Source: a phage. From it: a DNA stretch of 64,000 bases. Below are positions 2,122 through 63,497 of the stretch, piece after piece. The notes beneath the pieces were generated by a model. That model did no database searches. It saw only the letters and a list, made by a program, of their open reading frames with translations, and had not been told where the DNA came from. Made by a program: the position numbers and the translations under genes. Location of the stretch: sequence record PZ386977.1; one strand, written 5' to 3'. The stretch's first letter is position 1; each line of letters starts with the position of its first letter.

Positions 2122-2454
2122 TCACTTATAAAGACACGGAATAGCTTTATAGTGGCATGTTACGAATTTCTGTTTAATTTCTTTAGGTTGTTTAAGTCCC
2201 AAAGCCACAAATGGATGTGGAACATTTCGAATTTGTCCAACTGGTAGTGGAGTCAAATCACCGACTTCAACAAAACCTTCAGGAACATCAGGACCTACAG
2301 AATGAACTACACATAGTTCAGGAACTTCACCTTGAACACGTTTACCAATCACAAGTCCTGATTCGGTAACTTCTTCATCACCTGCTTGAGCGGGTTCAGA
2401 AACCAGAATGACATATTCACCAACAGCACGAATTGGGAGTTGTACTTCAGACAT
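2122..2454 (-). CDS. 31: gp31 GroES-like co-chaperonin for capsid protein folding
   Basis: 110 aa, [34 protein letters not shown]... matches T4 gp31. Confidence 0.9.
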
Positions 2455-2484
2455 CTTATTTCCTTGTTGTTTGACGATAGATTA

Positions 2485-2509
2485 ATAATACCATACTATT
2501 CGTAAAGCA
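2485..2509 (-). promoter_or_regulatory. MotA-dependent middle promoter (MotA box TGCTTTA, 12-nt spacer, TATTAT -10)
   Basis: Plus taaagca at 2503-2509 and ataata at 2485-2490, upstream of gene 31 start. Confidence 0.6.
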
Positions 2510-2511
2510 TA

Positions 2512-2820
2512 TTACATAAGAAGCAAACGTTCTACCGGAGTACCATCAACCGAAATTACTTTATCAAGGCGGAAAGAACGCCACTGACCTAACTTGGTAT
2601 CGAATGCTCGAACTGATTCACGAGGTTCATAACGAACTTCTGTTGCCGGATTGTTATTTTCATATTTGACTTCAAGTTCATCACGAGAAGCAAACATCGT
2701 GCGAACATCACCATTAGCCTTTTCAAATATAACACAATGAACGCCTACAGACAGAATAGTTTTAATACGTTCACGAAGAACCATAGTTTCTTGTTCAGTT
2801 AAAATCATATTATTCACCAC
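2512..2820 (-). CDS. hypothetical protein (102 aa), 31.1-like position
   Basis: ORF track; overlaps cd stop by 11 nt. Confidence 0.6.
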   Translation of the reverse strand: MVNNMILTEQETMVLRERIKTILSVGVHCVIFEKANGDVRTMFASRDELEVKYENNNPATEVRYEPRESVRAFDTKLGQWRSFRLDKVISVDGTPVERLLLM

Positions 2821-3391
2821 AAAAGTTTCGGATTTGTTCCCAATTCAGAGAACGAAGATTATTACGAGAGTACTGAATTACTTCAATACCGGCTTGTTTA
2901 AGAATGTCTGCCCAATTTTCAGGAGATCTGTCATATAACTCAGCGTATACAACCTTTTTAATACCTGACTGCGTAATAGCTTTAGTGCAATCAGGACATG
3001 GAGAAAGCGTAGTATATAACGTAGCACCTTCAATAGAATTACCTTTACGAGCTGCAAATAAAATTGCATTCAATTCTGCATGTATTTCGTTATTAGCAGA
3101 CCATGCACTATGAGCAGCCCGATGTTCTTTAGCTAAAACAAAATTATCTACCCGTCCAAATGCTGTAGTGCCTTCTTTATGTCCAGCAACGATGGCTGGG
3201 ATTGGTTTATTCTTCAACCAACCATTTTCAGATGCATGTTCGCAACAGTTAACGCCACCTGCAGGTGAACCGTTATATCCAGTAGAGATAATGCGTCCAT
3301 CTTTTTCAATGACGGCACCAACTTTCCATGAACAACATTTTGATTCTTGAGAAATCAGATATGCAATCTGAAGGTATGTGCTAGCTTTCAT
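2810..3391 (-). CDS. cd: dCMP deaminase
   Basis: 193 aa; HAELNAI and PCxxC zinc-binding deaminase motifs; T4 cd size. Confidence 0.9.
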   Translation of the reverse strand: MKASTYLQIAYLISQESKCCSWKVGAVIEKDGRIISTGYNGSPAGGVNCCEHASENGWLKNKPIPAIVAGHKEGTTAFGRVDNFVLAKEHRAAHSAWSANNEIHAELNAILFAARKGNSIEGATLYTTLSPCPDCTKAITQSGIKKVVYAELYDRSPENWADILKQAGIEVIQYSRNNLRSLNWEQIRNFCGE

Positions 3392-5480: not shown

Positions 5481-6566
<1,086 letters not shown>

Positions 6567-6567
<1 letters not shown>

Positions 6568-6866
6568 TATTTTATTCCTAAGAAAATTTCAAGAATACGA
6601 ATGTTATGCTCGCGCCGGTCTTTATTAATTTCAGCAACGTTTTTATTAATTGACGTACTTCTAACGTTTGAAGAAATAAATTTAATCATATGACTTTTGA
6701 GTTGTTGCAAATCCAACCCTTTTTCTTTAGCAGCTTTACGAAGAGCTTTACCTGCTTCATCTAGCGCCTTTGCTGCATCTTTGTCATAATTGCCAAGTGA
6801 CATTCCGCGACAGATATCAATATACTCATCAGACCGTTTGATGTAATTCTCTAGTAATGTTTTCAT
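6567..6866 (-). CDS. hypothetical protein (99 aa)
   Basis: ORF track; promoter upstream. Confidence 0.55.
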
Positions 6867-6894
6867 TTAGATTTCCTCAATTATCCATAGGAGC

Positions 6895-6924
6895 ATTATA
6901 ATCTGCTCCTGAGAGTTTGTAAAC
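6895..6924 (-). promoter_or_regulatory. early promoter (GTTTAC -35, TATAAT -10, 18-nt spacer)
   Basis: gtaaac 6919-6924, attata 6895-6900; -10 sits in inverted repeat ggagca/tgctcc. Confidence 0.55.
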
Positions 6925-7148
6925 TATTTTACTAAAGATTCAATATACTCGTGAAGAGCTTTAGTCGCTACTGCCCACTTATTCTGATATTCATTTTTCA
7001 GATTAGCACGAGACTGAACTAACAATCGGTCATTAGTCGGAGGCAAAGATTCTAATCGTTGAATCTGGCGCCCATAAATCATAGCCGCCATTTCAGATTC
7101 ATAGATAAGCCCTTTAATGTATTCATGCTGTTCTTTAGTCATTGGCAT
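6924..7148 (-). CDS. hypothetical protein (74 aa)
   Basis: ORF track. Confidence 0.5.
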   Translation of the reverse strand: MPMTKEQHEYIKGLIYESEMAAMIYGRQIQRLESLPPTNDRLLVQSRANLKNEYQNKWAVATKALHEYIESLVK

Positions 7149-7429
7149 TTTTCCTCTTTTAAACCACTACGATAATAACATATCATAGTCTTCTGGTCAT
7201 GTACATATCTTTTTACGTCGTTTAACCAGATACGAAATTCTTGAGAGTCTTCAAACGGCATTCCAACCCACGGATTACCATCAATAACCTTTACTTGCCA
7301 TTTCTGGTTATATTCAACAATAGATTCAGGCCATGGCGGATGTAAAGTTTCTTTAGGGCTTAAGGGCACATCCTGGGCACATCCAGCCAAAATACCAATA
7401 GATAATACAACTGCGGTTAATTTAATCAT
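7139..7429 (-). CDS. putative lipoprotein (96 aa)
   Basis: N-terminal signal peptide with lipobox LAGC (MIKLTAVVLSIGILAGCAQ). Confidence 0.6.
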   Translation of the reverse strand: MIKLTAVVLSIGILAGCAQDVPLSPKETLHPPWPESIVEYNQKWQVKVIDGNPWVGMPFEDSQEFRIWLNDVKRYVHDQKTMICYYRSGLKEEKCQ

Positions 7430-7782
7430 TCTGAGAGCTTCCTGAGGTCTTCTGCAAAGGAATCGAAGGACCTGTTGATTTGTTTTTCGACCAATCCTGG
7501 TTTACTTGCCACCACGTTCTTCTTCTTCGAATCCTTACGGAGCTTTTCATTTTCAGCCTTAAGTTGGTCAACTAAAACACGATTCTTATAAGTCATTTCT
7601 TCGATTGACTGATATTGAACCTTGAAGTCGTCTAATACTTTAGCATTGTTTTTAGCAGTCTCTTTAACAGAAGCCAATTCAGTATTCAGCGAATCAACTT
7701 TGTTGTTTAAGACAACTATTGTTACCGTAGAAACTAGAGCAAAAGCTGCTACTATAGCGTAAATCGGATTTACTTTAAGCAT
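7426..7782 (-). CDS. putative membrane-anchored coiled-coil protein (118 aa)
   Basis: Hydrophobic N-terminal segment IYAIVAAFALVSTVTIVVL followed by heptad-like charged region. Confidence 0.55.
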   Translation of the reverse strand: MLKVNPIYAIVAAFALVSTVTIVVLNNKVDSLNTELASVKETAKNNAKVLDDFKVQYQSIEEMTYKNRVLVDQLKAENEKLRKDSKKKNVVASKPGLVEKQINRSFDSFAEDLRKLSE

Positions 7783-8270
7783 GTTTTAATAATCTCAATG
7801 ATTTCATCTCGGGACAATCCATTGATAAGAACGGTTTTCAAACCATCACACTGGATTTTGTATGATTCAAACATTACACACAACTCTTCCGCTGTATGAT
7901 ATGGACTTGAGATTCCGAGACGGTTGAATTTGTCGGTAAGAGGGTCGCAAATGATGTAGAATTTTATACCTGCGATATGTACGTTGGGTTGACTAATATT
8001 AATGAACACATTAGCGTCGTATTTAGTCAAATTGTTTTGAAGAAATTCTACCATAGCATTAACTGCTTCTGGCATTGCTTCGCGTTTCTCTTCAGCGTAT
8101 CGGGTGGAATATTCCTTTTGCTTTAACTTCTTTTTAGCATTTTTCGCTAGAGTAGTACGAAGGTCCGTAAGATAACCAACTGCACGGCCTTTCTTAAAGA
8201 CCCGGATTCCATCTGTAGAATCACCAAATGCTGCCACAACCATATCGTTAGTAATCAATTGCATATTCAT
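7770..8270 (-). CDS. alc: Alc-like protein (size and position match T4 alc, inhibitor of host transcription on C-containing DNA)
   Basis: 166 aa between pseT block and rnlA as in T4; sequence not independently recognised. Confidence 0.5.
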   Translation of the reverse strand: MNMQLITNDMVVAAFGDSTDGIRVFKKGRAVGYLTDLRTTLAKNAKKKLKQKEYSTRYAEEKREAMPEAVNAMVEFLQNNLTKYDANVFINISQPNVHIAGIKFYIICDPLTDKFNRLGISSPYHTAEELCVMFESYKIQCDGLKTVLINGLSRDEIIEIIKTCLK

Positions 8271-8300
8271 AATTTTCTCCTCGTGTTGTTGATAAAAACC

Positions 8301-8330
8301 ATAGTAACACCATCCTTGGTGTTTGTAAAC
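8301..8330 (-). promoter_or_regulatory. early promoter (GTTTAC -35, TACTAT -10)
   Basis: gtaaac 8325-8330, atagta 8301-8306. Confidence 0.55.
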
Positions 8331-8332
8331 CG

Positions 8333-9466
<1,134 letters not shown>

Positions 9467-9483
9467 TCAGTTAGTTTTTTTAA

Positions 9484-9513
9484 ATTGTACCACAATCCTT
9501 GTGGTATGTAAAC
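9484..9513 (-). promoter_or_regulatory. early promoter (GTTTAC -35, TACAAT -10)
   Basis: gtaaac 9508-9513, attgta 9484-9489; overlaps 3' end of denA. Confidence 0.5.
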
Positions 9514-9923
9514 TACTTTTTCTTATGTTGGATATTCCAAGGCGGGTTGAACTTTTTGATAAAAAGCGGTTCTTCAAGGTCCATTGTTGCGATGGTCATT
9601 GAACCAAGTTCGTTGGTGACTGAAAGGTCAAAACATTGGCGGGCCCAGAATTCAACCTTTTTGCCTTGCATTAAGGCATCCAAAATCATAAGTGATTTTC
9701 TTGAATCTGAAGTCTGGTCTTTTCGATTTATGGCTGTTCGATAATAGTTAATACGTTTCTTTAAATTCTTGGTTTTACCAATATACACAAGTTCGTCATC
9801 TATAGCAATAGCATATATGACATTTTTCTTATTAGGGACATCAACTGTTTTAATTGTTGCATCTTCTAATAGCTCCAATTCTGTATATTTAATAAAGGAA
9901 TATTCGGCGGCGATATCTTTCAT
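9513..9923 (-). CDS. denA: endonuclease II (GIY-YIG family)
   Basis: 136 aa; VIYAIAIDDELVYIGKTKNLKKRINYYR GIY-YIG motif; near-identical to recalled T4 DenA. Confidence 0.9.
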   Translation of the reverse strand: MKDIAAEYSFIKYTELELLEDATIKTVDVPNKKNVIYAIAIDDELVYIGKTKNLKKRINYYRTAINRKDQTSDSRKSLMILDALMQGKKVEFWARQCFDLSVTNELGSMTIATMDLEEPLFIKKFNPPWNIQHKKK

Positions 9924-9949
9924 AATAAAGTGGGACCGAAGTCCCGTCC

Positions 9950-11128
9950 TTAGAAATATTTTTTGTATGAATTGATTACATTTTGGTCTACATCATTATC
10001 AATTTGTGCTACAAGATAAGAACTGATTTCAACTTCCTGAGGAGCGGCTTGAACTAAATCAGAGTTCAGGTATTCACGAATCCAAGGATACGGATGCTTG
10101 GTCGGAGCATCAGTGATTGGGCATGGCAACCCGCACTGTTTCATACGAGACACAGTCAAGTAATCAACAAAAGCACACATACTTTGCGTATTGATACCTG
10201 GACATGTACCATCTTTAAAGAGGTGTGCAGCCCATTCCTTCTCTTGACTATTTACTTCCATAAAAATGTCAACTGCTTCTTGTTCACATTCTTTAGCAAT
10301 TTGAACCCACTCATCGCCATCAGTACCAGATTGAAGTTGACGGATAATGTACTGAGTACCCTTGAGGTGGAGTTGTTCGTCACGAGCAATGAACTTCATA
10401 ATCTTTGCATTACCTTCCATAATTTCCATATTTTTATGGAAGTTGAAAGTACAAGCAAAAGATACATAAAAACGAATAGCTTCCAGGGCATTGATAACGT
10501 GAAGACAGAGATAAAGCGACTTCATCAGGTCTCGTTTACATTCTTCCAAATGAGTGAGACTGTTTGAATATGCTTCTAAATCATATTCATTTTCGGAAAA
10601 ACATTTAAAAATTTCTTTAGCATTTTCCCATTCACGTGTTTTAACCAGAACATCATCGTAATATTTACCTATTGATTCAGCTCGTTTCATGATTGCTTCG
10701 TCTAATACAATCTCATCAAATACCTTAGATGGGTCTGTATAAAGATTTCGCATAATATGAGTATATGAACGAGAGTGAATAGTTTCACTGAATGTCCATG
10801 TTGCAACCCATGTATCTAATGAAGGGTCAGAAATAAGTGCCATAAGTACCGCAGATGGGGCCCTGCCTTGGATAGAATCTAATAATGATTGATACTTAAG
10901 ATTGTTTGTAAAGATGTCCTGTTGGAACTGAGGAAGCTTATTGAACTGCGCAGAGTCCAACATCAAGTTTACCTCTTCTGGGCGCCAGAAAAACGACAAT
11001 TGCTTTTCAATAAGTTCTTCAAAAACTTTATGTCGCTGAATATCATAACGTGCGAGGCCAAGACCAGAACCAAAGAACATCGGTTCATTCAAAACATCGA
11101 CTTGTTGCGTGTTAAAAACTGTACTCAT
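9950..11128 (-). CDS. nrdB: ribonucleotide reductase small subunit, uninterrupted
   Basis: 392 aa contiguous ORF; di-iron ligand context (EEVNLM..., RDEQLH), position after nrdA. Confidence 0.9.
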   Translation of the reverse strand: MSTVFNTQQVDVLNEPMFFGSGLGLARYDIQRHKVFEELIEKQLSFFWRPEEVNLMLDSAQFNKLPQFQQDIFTNNLKYQSLLDSIQGRAPSAVLMALISDPSLDTWVATWTFSETIHSRSYTHIMRNLYTDPSKVFDEIVLDEAIMKRAESIGKYYDDVLVKTREWENAKEIFKCFSENEYDLEAYSNSLTHLEECKRDLMKSLYLCLHVINALEAIRFYVSFACTFNFHKNMEIMEGNAKIMKFIARDEQLHLKGTQYIIRQLQSGTDGDEWVQIAKECEQEAVDIFMEVNSQEKEWAAHLFKDGTCPGINTQSMCAFVDYLTVSRMKQCGLPCPITDAPTKHPYPWIREYLNSDLVQAAPQEVEISSYLVAQIDNDVDQNVINSYKKYF

Positions 11129-11182
11129 TATATTTTCTCACTTAGTTATAACTCATCCATGAGTAAATTATAATCAAAAGTC

Positions 11183-13438
11183 TTAAAGCTTACAAGCAGA
11201 ACAATCTTCAGCTTTAGGTGTTTCTAATTCATAGTCATCTGTACCTGACCCATCACGAGTGTTATGATAGTAGAGGTTTTTTCCGCCAAAGTACCAGAAG
11301 TAAAGCAGATCGTCAAGCATTACTGACATTGGCACTTTACCTTTCTCAAATACTGCAGGGTCATAGTAAGTATTAGCAGAAGCAGATTGGCACACCCATT
11401 TCAACATGATAGCAACTTGGGTCAAATAAGGTTTATTACCTTTCTTAGCAAGTTTCCACGCGTAGTCGTAAAGACCCATGTTATGTTCTATATTAGGAAC
11501 AACCTGACGGAAGTTGCCTTCTTTAGATTCTTTAATACTCACTGGACCACGCGGCGGTTCAATCCCGTTTGTAGAGTTTGATACTTGACTGCTTGACTCA
11601 CAAGGCATGAGAGCGCTAAGTGTACTGTTACGAATTCCGTGTTCTTTGAGTTCAGCTCGAAGTTCTTCCCAGTCACAGACGTAGTTCGGGGCTGCGATTT
11701 GGTCAATCTTTTTATTGTACCAGTCGATAGGTAATTCGCCTCTAGACCATTTAGTGTCTGAATAATACTCGCAACATCCTTTTTCTTTGGCGAGTTTGAT
11801 TGAAGCTTTGATAAGGCCATATTGCAATCTCTCAAACAATTCATGAGTCAAATCGTTAGCGTCTTCATATGAAGCGAAGTTAGAAGCTAACCATGCAGCA
11901 TAGTTCGTAACACCAACACCAAGATTACGACGCTTTTTGGCTTTTAAAGCTTCTGGAACCGGATAATCTTGATAGTCTAACAGGTTATCAAGTGCACGTA
12001 CTTGTACTTCAGCAAGTTCATTAATTTTATCTTGGTCTTGCCAATCAAATTTATCTAACACGAATGCAGATAATGTGCATAAACCAATTTCAGCATCAGG
12101 ACCATTCACATCATTAGTTGGAATAGCGATTTCACAACATAAGTTACTCTGACGAATTGGAGCTTTTTCACGAATAAATGGAGTGTAGTTGTTCGTGTTA
12201 TCAACGAATTGCGGATAAATTCGAGCAGTGCCAGAACGTTCAGTCATGAACAATTCAAAGAGTTCTAGTGCTTTGATTCTTTTCTTTCTGATTGTTGGGT
12301 CTTTTTCAGCTTTCTCATAAAGCTCACGGAATTTATCTTGATCTTCAAAGAACGAGTAGTATAGTTCGCCTGACATTTCGTGAGGGCTAAATAAAGTAAT
12401 ATAATCATTTTTACCAAGGCGTTCCATCATAAGGTCATTAATCTGAATTCCGTAGTCCATATGTCGAATACGGTTTTCATCCACGCCTTTGTTATTTTTC
12501 AGAACTAATAGGTTCTCTACTTCTAAGTGCCACATTGGATAATACGCTGTAGCAGCACCGCCACGAATACCGCCTTGAGAACAAGATTTTACTGCAGTTT
12601 GGAAATGTTTCCAGAATGGAATAACACCTGTATGTCGAACTTCACCCATACCGATCTTAGAACCTTCTGCACGAAGCATACCAACGTTGATACCAATACC
12701 AGCTCGTTTAGAAATATATTCAATAATTGATGCTGAAGTTTTGTTAATAGATTTTAACGAATCACCGGCTTCAATAACTACACAACTAGAGAACTGGCGA
12801 GTTGGAGTACGAGCACCTGCCATAATTGGGGTTGGCAATGAAACTTGATGAGTAGAAACGGCGTCATAAAAACGAATAATATGTTTCAAACGGTCATGAG
12901 TTTCATCTTGATGTAAGGCCATACCAATAGCCATGATAGCAAACTGTGGAGTTTCATAAATCTTCCCAGTTGTTTTATCTTTAACCAGGTATTTTTCTTT
13001 AAGCTGCATAGCACCAGCATAAGTCAGATCAAAATCTCGCTCATGTTTAATCCGAGAATCAAGATAAATGATTTCTTCTGCAGAATATCTAGACAACAAC
13101 TCAGGATCGTATTTGCCTTCATTAACACAATACGAGATATGGTCGATAAAAGCAGGAGGTTCAAACTGACCATACACATCTTTACGAAGTGCGAACATTA
13201 ATCCTTTAGCGGCAACATATTGATAATCAGGTTCTTCGACAGAAATCGAGTTAGCTGCAACTTTAATACAAATCTTCTGAATATCTTTGGTGCTCATCCC
13301 GTCAACAAGATGGGTCTTAATTTCTTCGTACAATTCATATGGGTCAATTTGTGTTCCTTCACACTGCCAAGTTAAGACTTGAATAATTTTCTGTGCATCA
13401 AAATTTTGGGATACACCACTGCTCTTAGTTACTTGCAT
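11183..13438 (-). CDS. nrdA: ribonucleotide reductase large subunit
   Basis: 751 aa; class Ia RNR catalytic motifs (NLCCEI, CESS...), C-terminal CSACKL-type tail. Confidence 0.95.
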   Translation of the reverse strand: MQVTKSSGVSQNFDAQKIIQVLTWQCEGTQIDPYELYEEIKTHLVDGMSTKDIQKICIKVAANSISVEEPDYQYVAAKGLMFALRKDVYGQFEPPAFIDHISYCVNEGKYDPELLSRYSAEEIIYLDSRIKHERDFDLTYAGAMQLKEKYLVKDKTTGKIYETPQFAIMAIGMALHQDETHDRLKHIIRFYDAVSTHQVSLPTPIMAGARTPTRQFSSCVVIEAGDSLKSINKTSASIIEYISKRAGIGINVGMLRAEGSKIGMGEVRHTGVIPFWKHFQTAVKSCSQGGIRGGAATAYYPMWHLEVENLLVLKNNKGVDENRIRHMDYGIQINDLMMERLGKNDYITLFSPHEMSGELYYSFFEDQDKFRELYEKAEKDPTIRKKRIKALELFELFMTERSGTARIYPQFVDNTNNYTPFIREKAPIRQSNLCCEIAIPTNDVNGPDAEIGLCTLSAFVLDKFDWQDQDKINELAEVQVRALDNLLDYQDYPVPEALKAKKRRNLGVGVTNYAAWLASNFASYEDANDLTHELFERLQYGLIKASIKLAKEKGCCEYYSDTKWSRGELPIDWYNKKIDQIAAPNYVCDWEELRAELKEHGIRNSTLSALMPCESSSQVSNSTNGIEPPRGPVSIKESKEGNFRQVVPNIEHNMGLYDYAWKLAKKGNKPYLTQVAIMLKWVCQSASANTYYDPAVFEKGKVPMSVMLDDLLYFWYFGGKNLYYHNTRDGSGTDDYELETPKAEDCSACKL

Positions 13439-34073: not shown

Positions 34074-34214
34074 TCACCATATTAATGAACGAATAACCAT
34101 TATAACATCTGAAATGAAAAGCACTACTTGTATTAGCCCAAACATCACACCGTAGTACAGAACCGTAAGCAACAACAAGAGCCCGAAGGCTCCTGCTAAG
34201 ATTTTCTTAATCAT
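34074..34214 (-). CDS. small hydrophobic protein (46 aa)
   Basis: Own translation MIKKILAGAFGLLLLLTVLYYGVMFGLIQVV...; ATG overlaps upstream stop (TAATG); below track cutoff. Confidence 0.4.
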   Translation of the reverse strand: MIKKILAGAFGLLLLLTVLYYGVMFGLIQVVLFISDVIMVIRSLIW

Positions 34215-37498: not shown

Positions 37499-39712
37499 TT
37501 ATTTGGCCGCTTCCACGGCCTTCATGAATTTAACGATTTGAGCGACCTGTTCTTTAGAAAGAGTACCACGTCGTCCCATGTATTCTGACACAATATGATA
37601 ATTGGTTTCGAATTCAATAACCATTTTATCATCATTATCGTAAGCATTATCTTTAAGCTTATCGAAAATTTTAGCACACAATTCTAACTTCCTGTTCAGG
37701 TCTCTGTTTTCAGCACCTGCGAATCGATTCCATCCCCAACGATTATTTACTGTTGAGAGTTTTGCAAAATCTTTACTGATTTCTTTGTTTTTAGAGCTAA
37801 AATACTTACTAAGGAAGTTAAGCTCTTCATTACGAGTAATATGATTCAAATAAGGCTGTGCTCTACGACTTGGTGATACATACTCATCATAATCCACTTT
37901 ATCGATTAGCGTAATATAGTCATTAATTGATTTTTCGAACAAGCATTCTACTTCACCAAGTTTACGAACTTTTTTAGCAATCTGTGGACGAACTACAGTG
38001 AACTCTTTAATACCTGACAAATCAGCAATACGGGTCAAGAAATTGGAGTCATAGTTCAACCAACCTTTATCTGCGTCAAGACATTCAGCATTAGAACGAT
38101 TACGAACTATAGCATAACCTTGGATTTCATCTGCTTCACTTGCCGGAATAAAGAGGTCTTCTGATACCCAAACATCGTTTTCATTCTTAAAGAATCGATG
38201 AGCACTTGGCGATTTAGGACGAGGCTCGTTAGTCCGTTTCCTGACTTCAATCCATGGCTTAACGATTTGTAAAAGCTCTGAAGTCTTGTACATGTTAATG
38301 TTGTCGCCATCAAAGATAACTTTAAGGCGTTCCAGAAGTTTCATTGCATCTTCGTCTGTAGGGTCAACGAATAGTACACTTTTACCAAAACCGCGTGGAA
38401 CTTTACCAGTTAATTTAACCTCGTCTTTAGACATTTCAATTGAATTAAGAGCTCGCATTAATGGAACGCGTCCCTTAACGTCGTCAATAACGATTTCAAC
38501 ATTTTTAATGTTAATGCCAATCAGGCTGTTAATTGAAATGGTCGATGATGAGCTACCACTTTCACGAATACGACGAAGACGAGGGGATTCAACGATATCG
38601 TATACAACGCCAAGATTACACCACTCAGGCCCCATTTTAAAACGTTTGTACAACTCAGAATAAGTTAATTGTTCTTTAGAGTATTTCAGTGATTCAATAT
38701 TAGACCCGGCCTTTTCCATGTATTTACGAGCGGTATAGCCAAGAGAATCAATTTCACGGAACACATGACGTGGGTATTTACAATCAATCCATTTCTTAGA
38801 ATCTTCAGCGAACAATTTAGCATCGATTTCTGCAACTCGTTTATGGATATTTGCTACTGTACGTTTATCAAATGACAATGCTTCACGAGACGGAGCTACG
38901 TCTAGTTCACCCATAGGGAATTTAATATAAGCTGTAGTGCATCGTGTCATCATCCATGTTTGTTCTTTAATAACACTTCCAATTGGATATACAATACCAC
39001 CATAAACAGCCATGATATTACCACGTTCACCCCATGGAGCTTCCTTGGCCAAATATACATCGTCAAATTCAGGGAAGTATTTAATATCTTTAACACCACG
39101 AACTTCTGCAATATCACCTAGAGGACGCATAACATAAGCAATTTCGGATGCAAACTTTTCAAAATCTTCTGGGTTAACCGGTACGACTACTTCTACACCC
39201 GTACGGTCATCAGGACCCATCTTATCTACAAAGGTTGGCTTAATTTGTGGACCTGTGTCATCTTGGTAGATTACGTAACCACGAACTTCGCCGTTGTGAT
39301 AAGACGTAAGGTTAAACGTATCAGTATATGCTAATGGAGCTTTAGAACCGAGTCCAAATCCACCAATGAAATCGTTGCTCGATGTTTTAGTTGAAGCAAA
39401 ATATGAGTTATAGATTCCTGGCTCTTCGTCATTACCTCGAATGGTGAAATCGCTCATACCAGGACCAAAGTCTCGAACTACAAAGCGTGGGTCTAAACGA
39501 CCTGGAGCCTGAACAATAAACTTATCAGTGCAACCATTAAGAATTTGTCCATCGATACAGTTTGTAATTAATTCACGTACACAAGCCAATTCTTTGTTTG
39601 TATAAAGGTCATTAGACAAAATCTTATAAACTTTGCTATTGCCTTGAATAGTGAATGCTGTGCTCTTACCGCCTGAACCAATAATCGTTTCTTTAGCCGT
39701 TTCAATAATCAT
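37499..39712 (-). CDS. rIIA: rIIA protein (GHKL-type ATPase-like N-terminus)
   Basis: 737 aa; N-terminal ELITNCID...DFGPGM...GGFGLGSKA ATPase-like motifs; size and position. Confidence 0.85.
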   Translation of the reverse strand: MIIETAKETIIGSGGKSTAFTIQGNSKVYKILSNDLYTNKELACVRELITNCIDGQILNGCTDKFIVQAPGRLDPRFVVRDFGPGMSDFTIRGNDEEPGIYNSYFASTKTSSNDFIGGFGLGSKAPLAYTDTFNLTSYHNGEVRGYVIYQDDTGPQIKPTFVDKMGPDDRTGVEVVVPVNPEDFEKFASEIAYVMRPLGDIAEVRGVKDIKYFPEFDDVYLAKEAPWGERGNIMAVYGGIVYPIGSVIKEQTWMMTRCTTAYIKFPMGELDVAPSREALSFDKRTVANIHKRVAEIDAKLFAEDSKKWIDCKYPRHVFREIDSLGYTARKYMEKAGSNIESLKYSKEQLTYSELYKRFKMGPEWCNLGVVYDIVESPRLRRIRESGSSSSTISINSLIGINIKNVEIVIDDVKGRVPLMRALNSIEMSKDEVKLTGKVPRGFGKSVLFVDPTDEDAMKLLERLKVIFDGDNINMYKTSELLQIVKPWIEVRKRTNEPRPKSPSAHRFFKNENDVWVSEDLFIPASEADEIQGYAIVRNRSNAECLDADKGWLNYDSNFLTRIADLSGIKEFTVVRPQIAKKVRKLGEVECLFEKSINDYITLIDKVDYDEYVSPSRRAQPYLNHITRNEELNFLSKYFSSKNKEISKDFAKLSTVNNRWGWNRFAGAENRDLNRKLELCAKIFDKLKDNAYDNDDKMVIEFETNYHIVSEYMGRRGTLSKEQVAQIVKFMKAVEAAK

Positions 39713-39724
39713 GTTTTTCTCTCA

Positions 39725-39925
39725 TCACAAGTTACGTTTAAAAATTTCTGCTACTTCAAGAAGTTCTTCTTTAGTAGCTGTATCGGTTTGTATTTTATAT
39801 CGAATTTCTTTAAAGCGTTCTTTAAAGGACTCTGCTGACTCGATATCAAAAAATCTTTGGATAAGCCGGAATTCCCGGAGCACTGCTTTATCAAAAAGTT
39901 CCAAGTCCACGTTATATGTTCTCAT
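39725..39925 (-). CDS. hypothetical protein (66 aa), rIIA.1 position
   Basis: ORF track. Confidence 0.55.
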   Translation of the reverse strand: MRTYNVDLELFDKAVLREFRLIQRFFDIESAESFKERFKEIRYKIQTDTATKEELLEVAEIFKRNL

Positions 39926-40017
39926 AATATTCTCTTCAGTAGATTCCTAGGGCACTATTACTAAAGACCATATAATCTATCATCTTATGTGTAATAGTGC
40001 CTCAGGCGATTCAGGAT

Positions 40018-41118
40018 TTACGCTGTGAAGATTTTATCCCACATCGCAACAACTGCATCTCGGTTATACTTCTTCCATACTGCTTCAGCACGTTTAACTC
40101 TAGCTTCGTATGTGTCAGTGAATTCTAATACAGCTTTTGTGTAAAGCGCAACTACTTCTTTCTTAGGAGTAGAGGAATCAATTTCTACACGCACAGTATC
40201 TGGGTCATATTCGAATGTCGCGTGCGGATAATCCTTAAAAACTAACTGAATCACAGGGACACCTTTAGAGATGGCTTCAATAGAACTATTCTCTACTGTA
40301 CCTGTGTCAGGACACGTATTGATAAGTGCTTTAGCTGTTTTAAGACGTTCCATGATTTCACTGTGTGGAGCATCAATAATAACAGGATATTTAGCTGGCG
40401 GTGCCCATTTACTAGGACAGTATCCTGCACCGTTTTCGCCTAGTGCTTTAATCGCTTCAAGAGCAACATCAGTACGACGCATCTTAGTGTCATAACGTTG
40501 AGCACTAATAATCAGATCAGTCGCTGGAAGAACTTCAGGTTTCTCATTCAAACAAATAACCGGATAATCTTCGGCTTCAAACAACGGATTTGCTCGCCAA
40601 TAATCATAATCAATTTTGTCAGTCAGACCTGAAGTCATATAACAATATTTGCGTTCAAATTCACGGAAGGCTTTAGTAGGAGCATAACTCTTGCCACCAT
40701 TCTTATGAATTTGAATAGTCTGGTCCCAAATTTGAACAATGCCACGAGATACCGGTTCAAATGGTGTTGCCATAAAATTCTTATGAACTTTAGAGAGACC
40801 TGCGTCTTTAATTGCCTGAACGGTTAGTTTGGTCGGTTCCATTGTAACAACGAAATCGTACTCATTGATGCCGGCTAGTTCAACAATCTTACGAGCCATA
40901 GTATAACTCATACCTAGACTGAATTTAGTCAGACGACCAACAGGATGATGATTAACCTTCCAGTCACCAAACGTGTCATTATCAAAGCCGATATAATCAA
41001 TATCAGCACCGATGGACACAAGATATTTCAACACATTTAAATGTACCGCTTCAAGACCACCTTGTACACGTTCTGGGTTAAATGGGACTGCGCGAGATGG
41101 GATAAACATAACTTTCAT
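40018..41118 (-). CDS. putative GT-B glycosyltransferase
   Basis: 366 aa; C-terminal ...GTVENSSIEAISKGVPVI... resembles the nucleotide-sugar-binding E-x-E region of GT-B enzymes; not an obvious T4 alpha- or beta-gt homologue. Confidence 0.5.
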   Translation of the reverse strand: MKVMFIPSRAVPFNPERVQGGLEAVHLNVLKYLVSIGADIDYIGFDNDTFGDWKVNHHPVGRLTKFSLGMSYTMARKIVELAGINEYDFVVTMEPTKLTVQAIKDAGLSKVHKNFMATPFEPVSRGIVQIWDQTIQIHKNGGKSYAPTKAFREFERKYCYMTSGLTDKIDYDYWRANPLFEAEDYPVICLNEKPEVLPATDLIISAQRYDTKMRRTDVALEAIKALGENGAGYCPSKWAPPAKYPVIIDAPHSEIMERLKTAKALINTCPDTGTVENSSIEAISKGVPVIQLVFKDYPHATFEYDPDTVRVEIDSSTPKKEVVALYTKAVLEFTDTYEARVKRAEAVWKKYNRDAVVAMWDKIFTA

Positions 41119-41144
41119 AATTAAGCCTTATTAAAATTAAAATG

Positions 41145-41162
41145 AAGCTCCCGAAGGAGCTT
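41145..41162 (-). terminator. hairpin AAGCUCC-UUCG-GGAGCUU + U-rich tail overlapping gene 39 stop
   Basis: Perfect 7-bp stem, tetraloop; minus RNA continues cauuuuaauuuu. Confidence 0.6.
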
Positions 41163-42978: not shown

Positions 42979-43027
42979 GTTGTCTCCTCGTTATGAAGGT
43001 ATTCTATCATCTGAAATCTAAAGCAAA

Positions 43028-61331: not shown

Positions 61332-61880
61332 TTAACGAGCCCATTTGATGATTTCTGTAATCAAACCATTACGTTCGCTTGCATTAAATCCTATAACTTT
61401 GTTAGCACCATCATGATTAAGTAATTGATACGTTTGGATTTTGTTATGAATTGCAAACTCTTCAAAATGTGAAATGACTGTATTAAAACCGAATGAAGAC
61501 AAAGTAATAAGGTCGTCTTCAAAACTTTCAGTCATTTCGTTACGTGTTAAAATAATTGTGAACACATCATGGTTTTGGCAAAGACGAACATAATCCTGCT
61601 CATAAACATCAAGAACAGAGTCCGCATCTTGTCGAATACGTCCATAAACCCAGTTACTAATATATCCACGGTCTAACAGATAAATCTTAGTAGGGTCTAA
61701 ATAATTCAACATCGTTTCGAAACAGCCAACTTCATTTCTAGACTTAACATCGAAACGTCCATCAACTGTTCGTTTAGGGAAATCAATCTTTACATATCTT
61801 TCACTAATTTCCATTATGTCATTAATGAAAGTTGTTTTACCAGCATTATCCGGGCCATCTACTAAAATAATTTTAGCCAT
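61332..61880 (-). CDS. P-loop nucleotide/nucleoside kinase-like protein (TMK/dNK fold)
   Basis: 182 aa; Walker A VDGPDNAGKTT and LLDRGYISNWVYG resembling the thymidylate-kinase DRY...S..AY motif; GAGGA SD. Confidence 0.55.
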   Translation of the reverse strand: MAKIILVDGPDNAGKTTFINDIMEISERYVKIDFPKRTVDGRFDVKSRNEVGCFETMLNYLDPTKIYLLDRGYISNWVYGRIRQDADSVLDVYEQDYVRLCQNHDVFTIILTRNEMTESFEDDLITLSSFGFNTVISHFEEFAIHNKIQTYQLLNHDGANKVIGFNASERNGLITEIIKWAR

Positions 61881-61881
61881 T

Positions 61882-62781
61882 TTATTCCTCGATTACGACA
61901 TCTTCGTATTTAGGTATATTATACGGTGAAGAAATTAAAGCATTAAAGTAGATGAACTCACCAAGACCTGGATGGAATACTTCTTCAGGATTTTCGAAAT
62001 ATTGAATCTTCGGACGTCCTTTAAGAATTTGATAGTACTCAGTTTTAGTTGGATTAAAAATTCGAATCAGCGCTTCTTCAGGATACTTATTTCTGTCGAA
62101 ACTATTATTTGGATCAGTTATATAAAGCGGTTGACCTAATTGAATTGCGCATTCAACCACTTGTTCAAAACGATAGCATGGGTCACTAATTCGAAATGGA
62201 TGAAAAATACCATCTAGATGAATAGGAGCCAAATCACCTACAAGACGCTGCATGACGGAAGGACATATAACTTTCTGCGTTACGATAATCTTATTACCAT
62301 CTGCACCTGCGTTAACCAGCACTTCTTTTTGACGTTCATTCAACACAGTAGTTTGAAGTGAACGATTAACAGACAACATGTCGGTTTTTAAGAATTCATC
62401 AATATAAAAACGTGGTTTATTAGGGTCTGCAGTGATATTGAAATTGAATTCTACGTCAAAAGCGCCATCATATCCAGTGATATCTGTGATTAGAAAATCA
62501 CAATCATAATAAGCAATTAATGAATCAACCACAAATTCATTTTCAGACCAGAAATATTTACGAGTGTTATACGCGTTATCTTTATACCATAATGGAACAA
62601 ACTTAAATTCTGGGAAAAGACGTTCACATTCTTTAATATCAGATGCATTACGTGGATATGTAATCACATCACCTGGATTAGCACGGTGCAAATGAAGTTG
62701 GAAGTTGCCATCCTTAAGGATGGCATACTGTCCAGTTTCATAAGACCGCATACTCAAGATTGGTACGCGGAAAATAGCCAT
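61882..62781 (-). CDS. hypothetical protein (299 aa) in the slot where T4 has beta-glucosyltransferase
   Basis: ORF track; start overlaps next gene stop; no recognised motif. Confidence 0.55.
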   Translation of the reverse strand: MAIFRVPILSMRSYETGQYAILKDGNFQLHLHRANPGDVITYPRNASDIKECERLFPEFKFVPLWYKDNAYNTRKYFWSENEFVVDSLIAYYDCDFLITDITGYDGAFDVEFNFNITADPNKPRFYIDEFLKTDMLSVNRSLQTTVLNERQKEVLVNAGADGNKIIVTQKVICPSVMQRLVGDLAPIHLDGIFHPFRISDPCYRFEQVVECAIQLGQPLYITDPNNSFDRNKYPEEALIRIFNPTKTEYYQILKGRPKIQYFENPEEVFHPGLGEFIYFNALISSPYNIPKYEDVVIEE

Positions 62782-63497
62782 TAGTCAAGGAATCCTTTAA
62801 CATAATCAAAATCACGTTCAAACACATGGGCACTTACCATGGTATGAGTATAATCACCAACTTCTACACCGCATTCGTTAGCGATATAATGAAGTAATTT
62901 TCCTTGGAGATAAAAATCCAACTGCATAACAACAGCACAGTTCTGAGAACGCATATGACAGTGGGTATAAAGCTTACCATCACGAATATAATAAGTTACT
63001 GAGTCAGTACATGGATATTCAAGTGTTTCGTCCGAATCAAGCAAAGCCTGATCAGAACTTTCTAGAATTTGGAACACAACTCTTCGAGAGTTAGGTTTTT
63101 CTTTAAGTTCTTTTAGAAGAGTTGGTAATTGGGCCGCAATGCGAGGACCATAGAAAGTGTTGAAGTTCGCCGGCAAAACATCTGATTTTGGTTTAGAAAT
63201 AAATTTAGCGACATTAGGATATGCCTTAAACGCTTCTTCTGCGTTGGTACCACCAGAAATCATAAACTTCCAGAAGTCTTCGGCATATTCATAAGAGATG
63301 CGGTTAATACGTGGGTCGGTCATTTTGAATGATGACGGATTGTCAACAACTACTGTCATGGACCCAATTTCATTACAACGTCCAATACGAGAATCAGTTA
63401 CGAATTCCGGGTTTTCTAAAATTTCACGATTGACTGCTTTAAATGCGGTTTGAAAATCTGCGGCTTTGATATATTTCATTGTGTTATGTTTTCCCAT
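62781..63497 (-). CDS. 42: thymidylate-synthase-superfamily enzyme at the gene 42 position (dCMP hydroxymethylase-like)
   Basis: 238 aa; PNSRR phosphate-binding motif and catalytic-Cys region YPCTDSVTYYIRDGK...MRSQN; GAGG SD. Confidence 0.65.
   Translation of the reverse strand: MGKHNTMKYIKAADFQTAFKAVNREILENPEFVTDSRIGRCNEIGSMTVVVDNPSSFKMTDPRINRISYEYAEDFWKFMISGGTNAEEAFKAYPNVAKFISKPKSDVLPANFNTFYGPRIAAQLPTLLKELKEKPNSRRVVFQILESSDQALLDSDETLEYPCTDSVTYYIRDGKLYTHCHMRSQNCAVVMQLDFYLQGKLLHYIANECGVEVGDYTHTMVSAHVFERDFDYVKGFLD

Follow-up and report, generated by a model that had tools for sequence, protein, structure and literature searches.

The window analysed here is a stretch of 64,000 nucleotides of phage DNA (sequence record PZ386977.1). 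Between rIIA.1 and the topoisomerase gene 39 it was found to carry an ORF of 366 amino acids on the minus strand, opening with ATG, where the original prediction had placed a glycosyltransferase (GT) (Table 1). That phage T4 encodes no glycosyltransferase at this location, as had also been claimed, agrees with the T4 junction, which consists of genes 60 and 60.1 together with a defective mobA. Gene 39 of the window is a single unsplit ORF of 605 amino acids, unlike that of T4, which is divided into 39 and 60; the gene 60 translational-bypass element and the mobA remnant are thus absent from the window. The window belongs to a Mosigvirus: at the nucleotide level the region is 98-98.6% identical to that of many Mosigvirus (RB69-like) phages, with the Mosigvirus NicPhage being 98.2% identical to the GT region. 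The GC content of the GT gene (0.38-0.42) is the same as that of its flanks and so gives no sign of recent acquisition, and a recent foreign origin of the gene was rejected on this basis. In the Escherichia phage IME08 (genus Dhakavirus), rIIA.1 and gene 39 are separated by a gap of 579 bp with no ORF or annotation (positions 2437-3015 of locus L006); this gap has no similarity to the GT gene, ruling out a GT remnant at that junction. Among the Mosigvirus phages the GT gene is situated approximately 21 kb away from the arabinose cluster described below.

Table 1. Features of the window discussed in the text, with positions numbered from the first nucleotide of the window.
Feature	Position	Strand	Remarks
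rIIA	37499..39712		Named by synteny with the RB69 record
rIIA.1	39725..39925		PF24210 match
Inverted repeat, 16-nt arms, 29-nt structured loop	39946..40006	minus	Between GT stop and rIIA.1 start
GT gene, 366 aa	40018..41118	minus	ATG start; corresponds to RB69 ORF003c/gp3 and HY126 glycosyltransferase; PHROG 8302
Segment TGTVENSSIEAISKGVPVI	40249..40305	minus	GT residues 272-290
AAGG, Shine-Dalgarno-like sequence	41126..41129	minus	7 nt 5' of GT ATG; identical in RB69
Hairpin, 7-bp stem, UUCG tetraloop, U-rich tail	41145..41162	minus	Between gene 39 stop and GT start
Gene 39, 605 aa	41161..42978		GyrB, HATPase and Toprim domains
MotA-box-type middle-promoter-like match	43001..43025	minus	Pattern match; just upstream of gene 39
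182-aa ORF, RB69 gp45 type	61332..61880	minus	Position and length match RB69p045; no Pfam match
Second putative DNA arabinosyltransferase, 299 aa, RB69 gp46:47 type	61882..62781	minus	~99% nucleotide identity to ORF046+047
5-hydroxy-dCMP synthase, RB69 gp48 type	62781..63497	minus	PF00303; PDB 9iqc/9ir2, E 1.5e-159; 98% to gp48

The GT gene had been described as flanked by terminator hairpins of its own. This holds for the UUCG hairpin (AAGCTCC-TTCG-GGAGCTT followed by CATTTTAATT), which matches a terminator-like pattern and overlaps the stop codon of gene 39; in related records its counterpart bears the annotation 'terminator'. Folded in a context of 57 nt, the hairpin has an energy that does not stand out (z -0.8), and it is best described as a putative terminator-like or RNA-stabilizing element. 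The structure on the other side of the gene is an inverted repeat that folds well as RNA (z -4.1); for want of a U tract it does not qualify as a canonical terminator. Each of the two structures is also conserved in RB69, with a substitution in one arm of the inverted repeat. The inverted repeat was also considered as a repeated element, which was rejected as it occurs only once in the window. A segment of its loop (39965-39975) was seen to be complementary at ten of eleven positions to the first codons of rIIA.1 (39912-39922), such that an alternative pairing could mask or expose the start of that gene.

Patterns for sigma-70-like, MotA-type and late (TATAAATA) promoters gave no match between gene 39 and the GT gene. 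An autonomous GT transcription unit was accordingly rejected, and read-through from gene 39 is favoured. The GT gene would be co-transcribed with gene 39 in pre-replicative leftward transcripts that pass, or are stabilized by, the UUCG hairpin, with the MotA-type match just upstream of gene 39 being the nearest candidate promoter for such a transcript. Over the window as a whole, the MotA-box-type pattern (TGCTT-N13-15-TANNNT) was found 22 times against 11.7 expected, a count reached in one of 100 shuffles. Its matches, several of which lie just 5' of gene starts, include 43001-43025(-), 61918-61942(-) and 34099-34123(-), and one falls within the gene for the first transferase, ahead of that for the kinase.

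The GT protein is 98.9% identical to RB69 ORF003c/gp3 (NP_861693.1), with four substitutions (E16D, R62H, N85H and T327I). Over its full length (1-366 of 366) it belongs to phrog_8302 (E 7.7e-222), a group labelled 'unknown function' in PHROGs. Homologues at least 95% identical were identified in 154 phage records and homologues approximately 42% identical in 55 Acinetobacter phage records, a degree of conservation that places the ORF far beyond chance. The gp3 family was found in 212 phage records only, one of them a Tegunavirus record, and the matches listed occupy one place per record in Mosigvirus and two in the Acinetobacter phages. It is a very small family. A word-indexed search of 5.8 billion proteins returned five clusters, and an exhaustive search of 1.84 billion representatives gave 15 proteins at E<=1e-3; the members that could be traced are proteins of Mosigvirus and Acinetobacter phages and metagenomic sequences.

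In the Acinetobacter phages Maestro (078, 077) and DLP3 (gp77, gp76), gp3-family genes occur as tandem copies inside the arabinose cluster (positions 9001-11300 of locus L002 and 6477-8772 of locus L004, respectively). The DLP3 proteins gp77 and gp76 are 43.6% and 41.7% identical to the GT protein over its full length, and 57.4% identical to each other. These identities make a lineage-specific duplication the likeliest origin of the tandem pair, and on this reading the Mosigvirus GT would be co-orthologous to both copies and not to gp77 specifically. The one-to-one orthology of gp3 and DLP3 gp77 implied by the pairing of Lee et al. (PMC13326640) is therefore unsupported. In databases the Acinetobacter paralogues carry labels as different as 'hypothetical protein' and 'putative DNA alpha-glucosyltransferase'.

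Two records depart from the intact single gene. That of LH01 carries the GT gene in two pieces. That of Shigella phage JK45 (MK962757.1) has an exact tandem duplication of 503 bp covering the 3' third of the GT gene and the downstream intergenic sequence (positions 1307-2109 of locus L007), creating a second ORF of 136 amino acids that ends in 130 residues matching the GT C-terminus exactly. This duplication may be real or may be an assembly artefact. The JK45 record is classed as Tequatrovirus, yet its GT locus is Mosigvirus-like.

Searches of the GT protein against Pfam-A identified no family at E<=10, including Glycos_transf_1 and Glyco_trans_4, and NCBIfam likewise gave no family match. 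Against PDB sequences there was a single match, to entries 9IQZ and 9IR0 (E 3e-247, 98% identity over all 366 residues), and a profile of the gp3 family searched against all PDB sequences retrieved 9iqz only. With no GT4 match from Pfam, NCBIfam or the PDB profile search, sequence methods cannot place the protein in GT4. The two structures were released on 2025-07-16 and are labelled in Foldseek as 'phage HY126 glycosyltransferase' (9IQZ, apo) and the same protein with UDP (9IR0). The paper associated with them is He et al. 2026 (Nat Chem Biol). The HY126 protein differs from that of the window by eight substitutions, seven of them at positions that vary in the family, with N56T lying at a position that is invariant in alignments that are themselves small.

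An AlphaFold model of the GT protein reached an overall pLDDT of 62.7, with residues 114-187 below 50 and the N-terminal domain of low confidence; this mediocre quality is explained by the shallow alignment that results from so few homologues. When searched with Foldseek, the model matched the HY126 structure first and then mostly GT-B glycosyltransferases, and the hallmarks of that class were found, namely two Rossmann-like beta/alpha/beta domains with the active-site cleft between them. The GT-B assignment made in the original prediction therefore stands, carried by the 98%-identical crystal structures and by the structural neighbours. By analogy with 9IR0, which was deposited as a UDP complex, the GT protein can be expected to bind UDP as the nucleotide of its sugar donor. 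The top structural neighbours were PimA (2GEJ), BshA (3MBO), WaaG (2IV7), WaaB and tll1591, at 10-15% identity, and the nearest of these are mostly retaining enzymes of GT4 type.

A C-terminal segment with an E-x-E motif had been put forward as resembling the donor-binding region of GT-B transferases. The segment is indeed present (residues 272-290) and its two glutamates, E276 and E281, do not vary in alignments of the family, but their spacing is E-x4-E. The motif reads T272-G-T-V-E276-N-S-S-I-E281-A-I-S-K-G, with G273 standing where the first glutamate of the GT4 EX7E motif would be expected, and the helix context E-A-I-S-K-G-V-P-V resembles the end of that motif. With EX7E absent and no profile match, the protein does not belong to CAZy family GT4 in the strict sense. 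Residues 272-290 are likely to make up a loop and helix in the C-terminal Rossmann-like domain that bind the nucleotide sugar. E281 has been aligned with the ribose-binding Glu-311 of the T4 alpha-GT (Thomas et al. 2018, PMC6024577). Kinship to T4 alpha-GT (GT72) or beta-GT (GT63), in structure or in sequence, was found to be no closer than to other GT-B families.

Arabinose in RB69 DNA was reported by Thomas et al. 2018 (PMC6024577), who proposed ORF003c as an arabinosyltransferase acting on hydroxymethylcytosine (hmC). The original prediction had referred to this proposal, and both the ORF and the 2018 proposal are as stated there; the modified base is 5-hydroxycytosine and not hmC. NMR has defined the RB69 base as beta-D-Araf-(1->3)-alpha-D-Araf-5-hydroxy-2'-deoxycytidine (Lee et al., NAR 2026, PMC13326640). 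In the same work, the thymidylate-synthase homologue gp48 was demonstrated to introduce the 5-hydroxyl at the level of dCMP, the gp46:47-type transferase was put forward as the enzyme that links the first (alpha) arabinose to 5-hydroxycytosine, and gp3 was named 'beta-arabinosyltransferase 2'. Two arabinoses have been reported for RB69 (PMC13326640), for NicPhage (PMC13390438), whose DNA holds 5-ara-dC and 5-ara-ara-dC, and also for Bas46 and Bas47. The DNA of DLP3 carries three arabinoses, and that of Thanatos, which has one ara-GT syntenic with gp46:47, is mono-arabinosylated (PMC13326640).

Both the synthase and the gp46:47-type first transferase are encoded in the window, consistent with membership of this arabinosylating group. 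The synthase carries the L143E, D169N and N177D signature typical of 5-hydroxy-dCMP synthases (read from a BLAST alignment re-registered by hand). Its stop codon and the start of the following gene have one base in common (62781), an arrangement suggestive of translational coupling. The first transferase gave no Pfam or PDB sequence match. In the RB69 record (positions 1098-1998 of locus L008) its gene is split into ORF046 and ORF047 by one additional T, at alignment column 545, which the intact gene of the window lacks, in agreement with a published remark attributing the split to a sequencing error. The gp46:47-type family was identified in 349 phage records, from phages of Escherichia, Klebsiella, Serratia, Yersinia, Proteus, Enterobacter, Edwardsiella, Pectobacterium, Erwinia and Acinetobacter, and it adjoins the synthase wherever the matches listed carry annotation. 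No sequence similarity was detectable between the GT protein and this transferase, with the gp46:47-type protein of Maestro as proxy (E 0.94). The neighbouring gp45-type ORF corresponds to a predicted thymidylate-kinase-like nucleotide kinase (PMC13326640). Genes for UDP-arabinose synthesis (RB69 gp50-55) would lie beyond the end of the window.

The identity of the GT protein, its fold class, the binding of UDP by its 98%-identical crystallized homologue and the presence of the other pathway genes in the window are established. Taken with the chemistry above, they make it probable that the GT protein is a UDP-arabinofuranose-dependent, chain-extending DNA arabinofuranosyltransferase, the second to act, as Lee et al. 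2026 propose. In such a pathway, dCMP would be converted to 5-hydroxy-dCMP by the thymidylate-synthase homologue and incorporated at replication, after which the first transferase would put alpha-D-arabinofuranose on the 5-hydroxyl. The GT protein, as a soluble GT-B enzyme, would then transfer a further arabinofuranose from UDP-arabinofuranose to the first one, in beta-(1->3) linkage, on double-stranded phage DNA, giving the di-arabinosylated cytosine of RB69, NicPhage, Bas46 and Bas47. The longer glycan may widen protection against host nucleases and other defences. In this scheme the donor sugar, the acceptor (the first arabinose, not the base) and the linkage made are those that we infer for the enzyme.

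The chain-extending role is supported by the distribution of the family, the relation of copy number to glycan length and the extension observed with the DLP3 proteins in vitro. In the few phages analysed, the number of gp3-family copies tracks the length of the glycan: Thanatos is mono-arabinosylated, Mosigvirus phages have one copy and two arabinoses, and DLP3 has two copies and three arabinoses. When combined in vitro, gp76 and gp77 of DLP3 lengthen the glycan of RB69 DNA using UDP-Araf, jointly adding a third arabinose, and no GT acted individually on 5hoC-DNA (PMC13326640). The name Aat is used for transferases that add extra arabinoses. A citing paper reports that Bas46 lacking 'the arabinosyltransferase Aat' is susceptible to a plasmid-encoded defence (PMC13216743).

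The main alternative is that the GT protein is the primary transferase, placing arabinose directly on the modified cytosine as proposed for RB69 ORF003c in 2018 (Thomas et al. 2018, PMC6024577), or that it performs both additions. This reading is kept in consideration because the HY126 homologue is titled simply 'phage HY126 glycosyltransferase', a generic name that would also fit a first-step enzyme, and because the structural relatives are retaining enzymes, which would fit the alpha first linkage if the donor were a UDP-alpha-sugar. The second arabinose has been assigned a beta linkage (PMC13326640), and if the donor were a UDP-alpha-sugar, forming this bond would call for an inverting mechanism, whereas the GT4-type neighbours are mostly retaining. 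However, the gp3 family was undetected in most lineages that possess the synthase and a gp46:47-type transferase; one Dhakavirus (IME08) has the first transferase with no gp3-family remnant at the junction, and mono-arabinosylated Thanatos has a single ara-GT, the one syntenic with gp46:47 (PMC13326640). Furthermore, the DLP3 homologues were individually inactive on 5hoC-DNA and yet extended DNA that was already arabinosylated (PMC13326640). A role in the first addition is for these reasons considered unlikely.

It is far less probable that the protein acts on a target other than DNA, such as host lipopolysaccharide, a lipid or a phage or host protein, with its link to DNA modification being coincidental. 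PimA, WaaG, BshA and WaaB do act on lipids, LPS and small molecules, and the Mosigvirus gene is distant from the arabinose cluster, but neighbours sharing 10-15% identity say little about the acceptor. The Acinetobacter homologues, moreover, lie inside the arabinose-DNA cluster and act on DNA in vitro (PMC13326640), and the tracking of glycan length by copy number also argues for a DNA substrate. Lastly, the missing Pfam and NCBIfam matches, the divided gene of LH01 and the partial duplication of JK45 might suggest an inactive or decaying remnant. This is effectively refuted by conservation: the ORF is intact in the window, 154 records conserve it at 95% or more, the motif residues are invariant across homologues of only about 42% identity, and the crystallized homologue binds UDP.

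With chain extension retained as the preferred role, a more specific joint reading can be offered, although we regard it as doubtful when taken as a whole. It holds that the protein is a lone inverting enzyme (or one using UDP-beta-D-Araf) on a GT4-like fold and that its gene forms part of a portable glycan-extension cassette. If this were true, a beta-(1->3) Araf-Araf bond on DNA would be made by a GT4-like scaffold with a truncated E-x4-E motif, the Mosigvirus enzyme would work without a partner, unlike the mutually dependent Acinetobacter paralogues, and a hairpin-bracketed cassette would have landed at the rIIA.1/39 junction, which is occupied by mobile-element debris in T4 and by the empty 579-bp gap in Dhakavirus.

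The GT gene is already known, having been identified in 2018, crystallized in 2025 as a 98%-identical protein and placed in the pathway in 2025-2026. What the window adds is a correct annotation for a gene that is mostly called 'hypothetical protein' in databases. The original prediction is supported overall once the acceptor chemistry, the likely step and the type of one hairpin are corrected. Among the hypermodifications of phage DNA, arabinosylated 5-hydroxycytosine has been characterized recently; it blocks many restriction enzymes, hampers nanopore sequencing and has been reported to reduce Cas nuclease activity, and the set of host defences that a phage evades appears to be tuned by how many arabinoses are attached. 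Identifying the transferase that sets the chain length is of relevance to the engineering of therapeutic Mosigvirus phages and to the production of DNA with defined glycosylation.

Among known systems, RB69 gp3 is the closest, occupying the same locus between rIIA.1 and gene 39 with the same conserved flanking hairpins, and it shows no difference of substance from the GT of the window. DLP3 gp77 and gp76 share with it the invariant residues G20-G21, R208, E276 and E281. They differ in being two genes in tandem inside the arabinose cluster and in needing each other for activity, whereas the Mosigvirus gene is a single copy away from that cluster. GT4-type enzymes (PimA, BshA, WaaG and tll1591) have the same GT-B architecture of two Rossmann domains; the GT of the window differs from them in its proposed acceptor, a sugar on DNA, and possibly in stereochemistry, which may be inverting. 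The T4 alpha- and beta-GTs resemble it in being GT-B enzymes that use a UDP-sugar to glycosylate a modified cytosine of phage DNA once replication has taken place.
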